Source of the DNA: Escherichia coli
Lineage (GTDB): Bacteria; Pseudomonadota; Gammaproteobacteria; Enterobacterales; Enterobacteriaceae
NCBI RefSeq assembly: GCF_044324785.1
Contig: NZ_CP172127.1
Reading direction: 5' to 3' (one strand)
DNA length: 64,000 nt
The stretch's first letter is position 1. Every line of letters begins with the position of its first letter. Under the pieces are notes generated by a model. That model did no database searches and was not told the DNA's origin. It was given only the letters and a program-made list of their open reading frames with translations. Positions 23,275-63,783 of the stretch are shown here, piece by piece. Position numbers and translations under genes: made by a program.

Positions 23275-23984
23275 AAATCGAACTGACGGTGAATGGACTA
23301 AAGGTACAGGCGCAGTACTCTGATGATGAAATTGAAAATGTACATAAACCGCTACTGCGTATGCTGGCGGCCTTACAGACGGTAAATCCGCAGCGGCGTA
23401 CGGTGGTTTTTCTTTGCGCTCCGCCGGGGACGGGTAAATCTACCCTAACCACCTTCTGGGAATATCTCGCGCAACAAGACCCGGAACTACCCGCTATTCA
23501 GACACTCCCGATGGATGGTTTTCACCATTACAATAGCTGGCTGGATGCGCATCAATTGCGCCCCTTCAAAGGCGCACCAGAGACATTTGACGTTGCGAAA
23601 CTGGCGGAAAATCTGCGCCAGGTCGTGGAAGGGGATTGTACGTGGCCGCAGTACGATCGACAAAAGCATGATCCTGTTGAAGATGCGTTGCACGTTACCG
23701 CACCACTCGTCATCGTCGAAGGAAACTGGCTATTACTGGATGATGAAAAGTGGCAGGAGTTGGCATCTTTCTGCGATTTTTCTATTTTTATTCATGCACC
23801 TGCTCAAATTCTGCGGGAGCGCTTGATTAGTCGTAAAATTGCGGGAGGATTATCGCGGCAAGAAGCCGAAGCTTTTTATGCCCGAACCGATGGTCCCAAT
23901 GTCGAGCGTGTGCTGGTGAATAGTCGTCAGGCCAATCTGATATTAGAGATGACCGAAGAAGGCAGATATCACTTCAAAAGCTGA
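23271..23984 (+). CDS. yggC: P-loop kinase-like protein YggC
   Basis: 237-aa ORF with Walker A PPGTGKST; overlaps yggD stop. Confidence 0.88.
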   Translation: MKIELTVNGLKVQAQYSDDEIENVHKPLLRMLAALQTVNPQRRTVVFLCAPPGTGKSTLTTFWEYLAQQDPELPAIQTLPMDGFHHYNSWLDAHQLRPFKGAPETFDVAKLAENLRQVVEGDCTWPQYDRQKHDPVEDALHVTAPLVIVEGNWLLLDDEKWQELASFCDFSIFIHAPAQILRERLISRKIAGGLSRQEAEAFYARTDGPNVERVLVNSRQANLILEMTEEGRYHFKS

Positions 23985-24131
23985 CAATTTATTCCAGTTA
24001 TTGCAGGGGTATTATCACGCCAGCCTGGAATAAAGCCCCCTACAAAAGGGGATAAAAGTGTGACGTAAGTCAGATAAATGTCTTCTTCGGCTGGACAATC
24101 ATTCCTTTTATTCCACGTTTCGCTTATCCTA

Positions 24132-24148
24132 GCTGAAGCGTTTCAGTC
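24132..24148. promoter_or_regulatory. candidate Cra (FruR) operator upstream of epd
   Basis: gctgaagcgtttcagtc is a near-palindrome resembling the Cra half-sites GCTGAA / TTCAGC, about 120 nt upstream of epd. Confidence 0.5.
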
Positions 24149-24268
24149 GATTAAATGTTCGACAATTAACCAATCAGTCGCAGTTTGCGACAGGTAAGGT
24201 TTCCCCGGACGATTTGCTGGATTACTCTGTCTGGCAAATTTGCTCAGGGAAAACCTTGCAGGAGATCT

Positions 24269-25288
24269 ATGACCGTACGCGTAGCGATAAATGGCTTCGG
24301 TCGCATCGGGCGTAATGTGGTTCGTGCTTTGTATGAATCCGGACGCCGGGCGGAAATTACCGTGGTGGCAATCAACGAACTGGCGGATGCTGCGGGCATG
24401 GCGCATTTGTTGAAATATGACACCAGCCATGGCCGTTTTGCATGGGAAGTACGACAGGAACGCGATCAACTTTTTGTTGGTGATGACGCCATCCGCGTAT
24501 TGCATGAACGTTCACTGCAATCGCTCCCCTGGCGTGAACTTGGCGTTGATGTAGTCCTCGACTGCACCGGCGTATATGGCTCCCGCGAGCATGGCGAAGC
24601 GCATATTGCCGCCGGGGCTAAAAAAGTGCTCTTTTCACATCCTGGCAGTAACGATCTCGACGCGACCGTTGTTTATGGCGTCAATCAGGATCAACTTCGT
24701 GCGGAACACCGCATCGTTTCTAACGCTTCCTGTACCACGAATTGCATAATTCCCGTCATCAAATTGTTAGATGATGCGTACGGTATTGAGTCTGGCACTG
24801 TGACCACAATTCACTCCGCCATGCATGATCAACAGGTTATTGATGCATACCATCCTGACCTGCGTCGCACTCGGGCAGCCAGTCAGTCGATCATTCCGGT
24901 CGATACTAAACTGGCCGCCGGTATCACACGATTTTTTCCGCAATTTAACGATCGCTTTGAAGCGATTGCGGTACGTGTGCCAACCATAAATGTGACGGCA
25001 ATCGATTTAAGCGTGACGGTGAAGAAACCTGTAAAAGCCAATGAAGTCAACCTGTTGCTGCAAAAAGCAGCACAAGGTGCATTTCATGGTATAGTTGACT
25101 ATACGGAATTGCCGTTGGTCTCTGTAGATTTTAACCACGATCCGCACAGTGCCATTGTCGATGGCACCCAAACCCGGGTCAGTGGCGCACACCTGATCAA
25201 AACGTTGGTCTGGTGCGATAACGAATGGGGCTTTGCTAACCGAATGCTCGACACGACGTTAGCTATGGCTACTGTTGCTTTCAGGTAA
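24269..25288 (+). CDS. epd: erythrose-4-phosphate dehydrogenase
   Basis: Start at [21 protein letters not shown] (339 aa). Confidence 0.95.
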
Positions 25289-25337: not shown

Positions 25338-26501
25338 ATGTCTGTAATTAAGATGACCGATCTGGATCTTGCTGGGAAACGTGTATTTATCCGTGCGGAT
25401 CTGAACGTACCAGTAAAAGACGGGAAAGTAACCAGCGACGCGCGTATCCGTGCTTCTCTGCCGACCATCGAACTGGCCCTGAAACAAGGCGCAAAAGTGA
25501 TGGTAACTTCCCACCTGGGTCGTCCTACCGAAGGCGAGTACAACGAAGAATTCTCTCTGCTGCCGGTTGTTAACTACCTGAAAGACAAACTGTCTAACCC
25601 GGTTCGTTTGGTTAAAGATTACCTCGACGGCGTTGACGTTGCTGAAGGTGAACTGGTTGTTCTGGAAAACGTTCGCTTCAACAAAGGCGAGAAGAAAGAC
25701 GACGAAACTCTGTCCAAAAAATACGCTGCACTGTGTGACGTGTTCGTAATGGACGCATTCGGTACTGCTCACCGCGCGCAGGCTTCTACTCACGGTATCG
25801 GTAAATTTGCTGATGTTGCGTGCGCAGGCCCGCTGCTGGCAGCTGAACTGGACGCGCTGGGTAAAGCACTGAAAGAACCTGCTCGCCCGATGGTGGCTAT
25901 CGTTGGTGGTTCTAAAGTATCTACCAAACTGACCGTTCTGGACTCCCTGTCTAAAATCGCTGACCAGCTGATTGTTGGTGGTGGTATTGCTAACACCTTT
26001 ATCGCGGCACAAGGCCACGATGTGGGTAAATCCCTGTACGAAGCTGATCTGGTTGACGAAGCAAAACGTCTGCTGACCACCTGCAACATCCCGGTTCCGT
26101 CTGATGTTCGTGTAGCAACTGAGTTCTCTGAAACTGCACCGGCTACCCTGAAATCTGTTAACGATGTGAAAGCTGACGAGCAGATCCTGGATATCGGTGA
26201 TGCTTCCGCTCAGGAACTGGCTGAAATCCTGAAGAATGCGAAAACCATTCTGTGGAACGGTCCGGTTGGCGTGTTCGAATTCCCGAACTTCCGCAAAGGT
26301 ACTGAAATCGTGGCTAACGCTATCGCAGACAGCGAAGCGTTCTCCATCGCTGGCGGCGGCGACACTCTGGCAGCAATCGACCTGTTCGGCATTGCTGACA
26401 AAATCTCCTACATCTCCACTGGCGGCGGCGCATTCCTCGAATTCGTGGAAGGTAAAGTACTGCCTGCAGTAGCGATGCTCGAAGAGCGCGCTAAGAAGTA
26501 A
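25338..26501 (+). CDS. pgk: phosphoglycerate kinase
   Basis: Start at [26 protein letters not shown] (387 aa). Confidence 0.97.
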
Positions 26502-26715: not shown

Positions 26716-27795
26716 ATGTCTAAGATTTTTGATTTCGTAAAACCTGGCGTAATCACTGGTGATGACGTACAGAAAGTTTTCCAGGTAGCAAAAGAAAACA
26801 ACTTCGCACTGCCAGCAGTAAACTGCGTCGGTACTGACTCCATCAACGCCGTGCTGGAAACCGCTGCTAAAGTTAAAGCGCCGGTTATCGTTCAGTTCTC
26901 CAACGGTGGTGCTTCCTTTATCGCTGGTAAAGGCGTGAAATCTGACGTTCCGCAGGGTGCTGCTATCCTGGGCGCGATCTCTGGTGCGCATCACGTTCAC
27001 CAGATGGCTGAACATTATGGTGTTCCGGTTATCCTGCACACCGACCACTGCGCGAAGAAACTGCTGCCGTGGATCGACGGTCTGCTGGACGCGGGTGAAA
27101 AACACTTCGCAGCTACCGGCAAGCCGCTGTTCTCTTCTCACATGATCGACCTGTCAGAAGAATCTCTGCAAGAGAACATCGAAATCTGCTCTAAATACCT
27201 GGAGCGCATGTCCAAAATCGGCATGACTCTGGAAATCGAACTGGGTTGCACCGGTGGTGAAGAAGACGGCGTAGACAACAGCCACATGGACGCTTCTGCA
27301 CTGTACACCCAGCCGGAAGACGTTGATTACGCATACACCGAGCTGAGCAAAATCAGCCCGCGTTTCACCATCGCTGCGTCCTTCGGTAACGTACACGGTG
27401 TTTACAAGCCGGGTAACGTGGTTCTGACTCCGACCATCCTGCGTGATTCTCAGGAATATGTTTCTAAGAAACACAACCTGCCGCACAACAGCCTGAACTT
27501 CGTATTCCACGGTGGTTCCGGTTCTACTGCTCAGGAAATCAAAGACTCCGTAAGCTACGGCGTAGTGAAAATGAACATCGATACCGATACCCAATGGGCA
27601 ACCTGGGAAGGCGTTCTGAACTACTACAAAGAAAACGAAGCTTACTTGCAAGGCCAGCTGGGCAACCCGAAAGGCGAAGATCAGCCGAACAAGAAATACT
27701 ACGATCCGCGCGTATGGCTGCGTGCCGGTCAGACTTCGATGATCGCTCGTCTGGAAAAAGCATTCCAGGAACTGAACGCGATCGACGTTCTGTAA
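26716..27795 (+). CDS. fbaA: class II fructose-bisphosphate aldolase
   Basis: Start at MSKIFDFVKPGVITGDDVQKVFQVAKENNFALPAVN (359 aa). Confidence 0.97.
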   Translation: MSKIFDFVKPGVITGDDVQKVFQVAKENNFALPAVNCVGTDSINAVLETAAKVKAPVIVQFSNGGASFIAGKGVKSDVPQGAAILGAISGAHHVHQMAEHYGVPVILHTDHCAKKLLPWIDGLLDAGEKHFAATGKPLFSSHMIDLSEESLQENIEICSKYLERMSKIGMTLEIELGCTGGEEDGVDNSHMDASALYTQPEDVDYAYTELSKISPRFTIAASFGNVHGVYKPGNVVLTPTILRDSQEYVSKKHNLPHNSLNFVFHGGSGSTAQEIKDSVSYGVVKMNIDTDTQWATWEGVLNYYKENEAYLQGQLGNPKGEDQPNKKYYDPRVWLRAGQTSMIARLEKAFQELNAIDVL

Positions 27796-30482: not shown

Positions 30483-30620
30483 AATGCCTTTACCCGATAT
30501 TGCCTCCTTTTTCTGTAATTTTCTGTAAAACCATGACGTAATCACCTATCTTTGCTCGCGGTTTCATCAAGGATAGGCTGACTGAAACGGTTAAGCGGAC
30601 AAGGATGCGGGGGAGGGGGG

Positions 30621-63661: not shown

Positions 63662-63783
63662 AATTTCTCACATGTAATTCTAATCACTCATCATTATAGA
63701 TAATTGAAGAGTGAAATGATTAACCAAGTGAGCGTTTATCGACAACCGCCCGTTTTGAGCGGATGTCGACAGGTAAAAACCAT

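Follow-up and report, generated by a model that had tools for sequence, protein, structure and literature searches.

Positions 24132-24147 of the DNA analysed here constitute, with a probability that we put at about 0.97, the Cra (FruR) operator of the epd promoter. The window, that is, the whole stretch of 64,000 nucleotides under analysis, is a segment of the Escherichia coli chromosome collinear with K-12 over yggC-epd-pgk-fbaA, and the element itself is already known: it is the K-12 epd Cra operator in another E. coli strain, not a relative of it. The initial annotation had pointed to a near-palindrome at 24132-24148 resembling the Cra/FruR consensus, and the 17-mer gctgaagcgtttcagtc is found on the + strand at exactly those positions. 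The 18-mer given in the literature extends over 24131-24148, one nucleotide more than the 17-mer. When the 16-mer at 24132-24147 is compared with its own reverse complement, 12 of 16 positions agree (CTGAA.CG.TTCAG). The features that matter for this reading are as follows.

24059-24074, no strand assigned: CRP box TGTGAcgtaagTCAGA, 9 of 10 consensus positions, centre at -70.5 (class I activator position)
24102-24107, + strand: weak -35 hexamer TTCCTT (-35 to -30), within the conserved block cATTCCTTTTATTCC, inferred from the spacing to the -10
24125-24130, + strand: -10 hexamer TATCCT (-12 to -7), directly adjoining the Cra box, placed by its offset from the published start
24132-24147, no strand assigned: Cra (FruR) operator GCTGAAGCGTTTCAGT, 16-bp imperfect palindrome, centre at +3.5 from the epd start
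24137, + strand: epd transcription start, the A of GCTGAA, transferred from K-12 (identical stretch)
24137-24268, + strand: epd 5' untranslated leader, 132 nt
24260-24264, + strand: Shine-Dalgarno sequence AGGAG
24269-25288, + strand: epd, erythrose-4-phosphate dehydrogenase (339 aa), first gene of the operon
25338-26501, + strand: pgk, phosphoglycerate kinase (387 aa)
26716-27795, + strand: fbaA, class II fructose-bisphosphate aldolase (359 aa)

The genes of the region, cmtBA-yggP-yggF-fumE-yggC-epd-pgk-fbaA-mscS-argO-yggE-srsR, follow the K-12 order in reversed orientation. The 17-mer lies in the 284-bp spacer between the yggC stop codon (23984) and the epd ATG (24269), and ends 121 nt and begins 137 nt before that ATG. 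From 24101 through the epd ATG the DNA is identical, base for base, to that of K-12 MG1655, where the counterpart of the site is found at NC_000913.3 3,073,813-3,073,828 (complement). The K-12 MG1655 epd promoter (epd P0 / epdP1) therefore has the same operator sequence, the same context from -36 through the ATG, the same start and -10, and the same CRP box. The two spacers differ only further upstream, at 10 positions that all fall within 23985-24100 and touch no recognised element. Among complete E. coli genomes, 5425 of 5426 contain one match each to a 501-bp query around the site, with yggC and epd annotated, and the 91-bp stretch comprising promoter and operator is present as a single copy in the same proportion (5425/5426, at least 95% identity).

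The upstream part of the yggC-epd spacer is less uniform. In about 61% of the complete E. coli genomes (3331/5425) homology to the window breaks off at 24048-24060. This indel boundary is immediately 5' of the epd CRP box and stops just before the CRP-promoter-Cra module. In the two such genomes that were inspected (L094, 1773-4850; L095, 1762-4838) a divergently transcribed cluster of about 3 kb is placed between yggC and epd, encoding a DNA-binding protein with a PPC domain as well as an ECF transporter whose four genes specify the S and T components and two ATPases. This cluster is absent from the window and from K-12. Near the junction, at 24036-24052, the minus strand of the spacer contains a hairpin resembling a terminator, TCCCCTTTTGTAGGGGG, with a T-rich tail after it; read on the + strand, this stem stands 3' of the yggC stop codon and has no T-run.

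Further information about the site was obtained with a Cra matrix derived de novo, by palindrome-constrained expectation maximisation (EM), from the regions upstream of 13 established K-12 Cra targets (fruB, pykF, ppsA, pckA, aceB, icd, pfkA, tpiA, fbp, gapA, edd, mtlA and ptsH). The epd gene was deliberately excluded from this set. All the best seeds shown converged to GCTGAATCGATTCAGC, which is the Cra motif published from ChIP-exo and RegPrecise, gcTGAAtCGaTTCAgc, and the sites recovered include CCTGAATCAATTCAGC (pfkA) and GCTGAATCGTTTCAAT (fruB). Against this matrix the epd site scores 19.82 of a possible 24.4 bits. It is the best match in the window and outscores 12 of the 13 training sites, even though these shaped the matrix; the low score that would have spoken against the initial annotation was not obtained. 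The exact per-position probability of such a score is 6.5e-8, which corresponds to 0.004 chance matches per 64-kb window, 2e-5 per 284-bp spacer and 0.3 per 4.6-Mb genome, and 0.33% of the windows simulated with a first-order Markov model attained it. The site also matches exactly, on the minus strand, the classical asymmetric consensus of Ramseier, RSTGAAWCSNTHHW. Thus, it has the form described for Cra operators, an imperfect palindrome of 14-16 bp with a central CG that conforms to gcTGAAtCGaTTCAgc and RSTGAAWCSNTHHW.

The simpler counts carry less weight. The window has one copy of the 12-nt core TGAANCGNTTCA, where shuffles would lead one to expect 0.17; taken by itself the core is only suggestive, as a chance copy appears in 17% of shuffled windows, and the case is consequently built on the score of the full matrix together with position and conservation. 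The complete 17-mer has no further match in the window at up to one mismatch, and three matches against 0.20 expected when up to three mismatches are allowed. Two other matrix matches, at 63710 (13.9 bits) and 20456 (13.2 bits), were dropped, since random windows reach the same level with their best match (mean 14.0, sd 1.9).

The second-best matrix match in the window is ACTGAAACGGTTAAGC, at 30581-30596 in the yggE-srsR spacer, with 17.5 bits. It scores above 8 of the 13 training sites and is a perfect match to the Ramseier consensus; 0.035 matches of this score are expected by chance per 64-kb window and about 2.5 per genome. It is placed 25 nt before the ATG (30621) of srsR (ygfI), which encodes a LysR-type regulator of stationary-phase stress. 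Within E. coli the 121 bp around the box hardly vary, and E. albertii has the box too. It was not found upstream of the Citrobacter orthologues, and conservation gives it no support beyond Escherichia. Neither the main text of Kim 2018 (PMC5888115) nor the SrsR paper mentions this box. Judging from its sequence, it is a candidate operator, and srsR is possibly an unreported or little-noticed Cra target.

Direct observations on the DNA studied here are the sequence of the epd site, the score that the matrix gives it, where it lies with respect to the transferred start, its identity with K-12 and its conservation. Cra occupancy, Cra-dependent repression and the start itself come from K-12 papers on the identical sequence and should apply to this strain. 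In K-12, a Cra ChIP-exo footprint covers the epd -10 box and the transcription start, and RNA-seq together with RpoB occupancy in cra and crp mutants indicated that Cra represses the promoter and CRP activates it; on acetate, Cra was dominant over CRP at the epd operon (Kim 2018, PMC5888115). The Cra site described as coming 'from epd gene' by Wang 2021 (PMC8363753) is AGCTGAAGCGTTTCAGTC, which we located at window positions 24131-24148. When it was inserted between pBAD and the ribosome-binding site, activity was 3.7-fold lower; the repression was gone in a cra deletion strain and none was seen with the site outside the promoter (PMC8363753). The box by itself thus suffices to bring a foreign promoter under repression by Cra. 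By contrast, Olvera 2009 (PMC2759082) ascribed only a minor role to Cra at the epd operon under their glucose conditions. The operon is accordingly the known Cra target that the initial annotation had taken it for, and its documented Cra site is the one marked there and does not lie elsewhere, as far as the secondary statements on the 18-mer and on the footprint allow it to be placed.

The box has much in common with the operators of the LacI/GalR family at large (lacO, PurR box, GalR box): a dimer bound to an imperfect palindrome of 16 bp with a CG step at its centre, which a small sugar-phosphate effector releases allosterically. The PurR consensus ACGCAAACGTTTGCGT, for instance, agrees with the epd box at 10 of 16 positions. 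The palindrome could on these grounds be attributed to another repressor of the family, such as PurR, GalR/GalS, CytR or ScrR, or to a different factor such as FlhDC, for which genomic SELEX gave a strong peak in the yggC/epd spacer. We regard this as very unlikely. The positions that determine specificity are TGAA and TTCA, those of Cra, whereas PurR would have GCAA and TTGC; a matrix trained solely on Cra targets ranks the epd site first; and both the published occupancy (PMC5888115) and the repression conferred by the transplanted 18-mer (PMC8363753) concern Cra. FlhDC, in turn, activates transcription, and the resolution of its SELEX peak does not reach down to the box. Cra also differs from the other members compared in being a global rather than a pathway-specific regulator.

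The position of the box within the promoter agrees with its assignment to Cra. Olvera 2009 (PMC2759082) gave FruR and Crp as the factors acting on the epd promoter, reported a promoter sequence ending in ...CGCTTATCCTAGCTGAA, and placed the start at -132 from the ATG, a position borne out by 5'RACE of their own and by pyrosequencing. Numbered from 24137 (+1), the box runs from -5 to +11 and the start falls inside its left arm. The initial annotation was therefore right to place the box upstream of the operon with respect to the coding sequence, and the gene order that it gave is correct; with respect to the promoter the description does not hold, as the box overlaps the start point, and this overlap marks it as a repressing site. 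At repressed glycolytic promoters Cra binds over or downstream of the promoter (PMC5888115, PMC10760178), as is the case here.

The rest of the promoter has the architecture of class I CRP activation, which has been reported for epd (PMC5888115). CRP boxes of this class precede a weak -35 and have their centre near -61.5, -71.5, -82.5 or -92.5, and that of epd, with its centre at -70.5, likewise precedes a weak -35 hexamer; epd is also a CRP SELEX target. The -10 is kept across epd loci as TAttCT at the same offset, a -35 region block, TTCCTTTT, is kept as well, and columns -30 to -23 of the box-anchored alignment hold 0.6-1.6 bits. A consensus sigma-70 scan of 23900-24350 returned no promoter. 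We do not count this against the promoter, because the published one is weak and CRP-dependent.

Being an inverted repeat at the 5' end of a transcript, the box might also be read as an RNA-level element, either a hairpin of the epd mRNA or a terminator-like stem, the more so as the whole epd leader (24137-24268) is predicted to be unusually stable (-50.4 kcal/mol, z = -3.87 against shuffles). Nevertheless, transcription starts inside the left arm and the transcript lacks GCTGA, so that the hairpin of the box cannot form. In the predicted leader fold, none of the bases +1 to +9 pairs with the right arm. There is no T-run 3' of the stem and no terminator was called there. The leader matches no Rfam family and shows no compensatory base changes among 21 Enterobacteriaceae, while variation within the box is limited to one column without any compensatory pattern. 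With the start inside the left arm, no Rfam match and no covariation, we rejected this reading, whose likelihood is negligible.

Just 3' of the Cra box, a 30-nt block at 24148-24177 (CGATTAAATGTTCGACAATTAAyCAATCAG) is conserved in sequence within the Enterobacteriaceae only and holds the inverted repeat GTCGA-N8-TCGAC. It may be bound by another protein or act as a feature of the RNA.

Conservation of the Cra box was studied by an Epd protein scan with one genome per species, which gave 80 loci from Escherichia to Vibrio, 79 of them with enough upstream DNA. Taking the box as present when the best Cra-matrix match within 400 bp of epd reached at least 15 bits, we found it in 72 of the 79 loci, including those from Escherichia to Proteus, Photorhabdus and Arsenophonus, and nearly always as the same word: GCTGAAGCGTTTCAGT in 43 loci, GCTGAACCGTTTCAGT in 18, GCTGAATCGTTTCATT in 6 and four rarer variants in the other 5. 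The 16 columns of the box average 1.84 bits in the box-anchored alignment, against 0.18 bits for columns -100 to -41 and 0.26 bits for the 60 columns 3' of the box. Position 7 is the only column that varies freely (G43/C19/T7/A3); it carries the least information of all matrix columns and corresponds to the N of the Ramseier consensus. Position 10, which mirrors it in the palindrome, is fixed, as expected from the W of the asymmetric consensus.

Within this set of 79 loci, the box was not found in Vibrionaceae, Tolumonas, Plesiomonas, Budvicia and one Rosenbergiella. According to Ravcheev 2014 (PMC4052901), FruR is a local regulator of fructose metabolism in Vibrionales and turned into a global glycolytic regulator in Enterobacterales, the only group where its role is global. 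The distribution of the box, as judged from sequence matches, appears to agree with that reconstruction of the FruR regulon: at the level of lineages, the box is kept where Cra is global and absent where it is local.

These data also bear on whether the site could be a chance near-palindrome without function. The expectation for the 12-nt core alone would leave some room for it, whereas the full-matrix expectations for the window and for the spacer leave hardly any, and Cra occupancy and function at epd have been published (PMC5888115, PMC8363753). Near-invariance of the box over some 70 genomes, between flanks that have drifted to about 0.2 bits per column, is a phylogenetic footprint, and because of it we exclude chance, an explanation with next to no probability left.

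A CRP box with at least 8 of 10 matches lies 72-75 bp upstream of the start of the Cra box in 43 of 70 loci. The arrangement in which a CRP box, a weak promoter and a Cra box follow one another, as predicted from these alignments, is conserved over much of the order, especially in Enterobacteriaceae, Erwiniaceae and Pectobacteriaceae. In Serratia (L058, L061, L062, L084), Hafnia (L089) and Edwardsiella (L072, L077) the best CRP-like box is found 94-95 bp upstream of the Cra box start, about 21 bp (two helical turns) further up, as if it had moved from about -70.5 to about -91.5 with the Cra box unmoved. The shifted box matches at 8-9 of 10 positions in Hafnia and Edwardsiella only, and at 7 of 10 in Serratia.

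The invariance of the Cra operator is stricter than the matrix itself. Over more than 25 genera, 15 of its 16 positions are essentially fixed; among them are positions 1-2 and 15-16, which the Cra matrix specifies weakly, and position 16 is a conserved non-consensus T. Moreover, the epd mRNA begins with the +1 to +11 part of the box, which makes up its 5'-terminal 11 nt. Part of the invariance could thus be due to the initial transcribed sequence and its role in promoter escape, in the choice of the start site or in 5'-end-dependent decay of the epd segment, which is notorious for its low yield. A second constraint of this kind, overlapping with Cra binding, seems to us improbable, though less so than the alternatives weighed above, and the evidence does not require it: the classical Cra consensus is itself asymmetric, and the asymmetry that is conserved already agrees with it.

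The Cra operators of pfkA, pykF, fruB (O1/O2) and gapA present the same 16-bp motif as the epd box. Compared with the other glycolytic operators, that of epd has a G at the weak position 7 and a T at position 16, and only fruB outscores it; epd has a single Cra site, whereas fruB has a pair.

Nothing in the data speaks against the Cra operator, and it is tempting to propose how it would work. A Cra dimer on GCTGAAGCGTTTCAGT would cover -5 to +11 and adjoin the -10 hexamer, thereby blocking RNA polymerase binding or open-complex formation, presumably by steric hindrance, and overriding activation by cAMP-CRP from -70.5. At high glycolytic flux, fructose-1-phosphate would lower the affinity of Cra for DNA and the operon would be transcribed, if the effector acts at the epd promoter as expected. 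Fructose-1,6-bisphosphate has also been reported as a Cra effector, which is disputed (PMC10760178).

In summary, the operator itself brings no new biology. It is a positive control: the initial annotation, made from the bare sequence, had placed this real and curated operator to the base, and the combination of matrix and footprint recovered it quantitatively. Metabolic engineering has already put the same site to use as a transferable part that responds to Cra (PMC8363753). For the bacterium, the epd operator would couple the levels of Epd, Pgk and FbaA to glycolytic flux, with Cra overriding cAMP-CRP on poor carbon sources.
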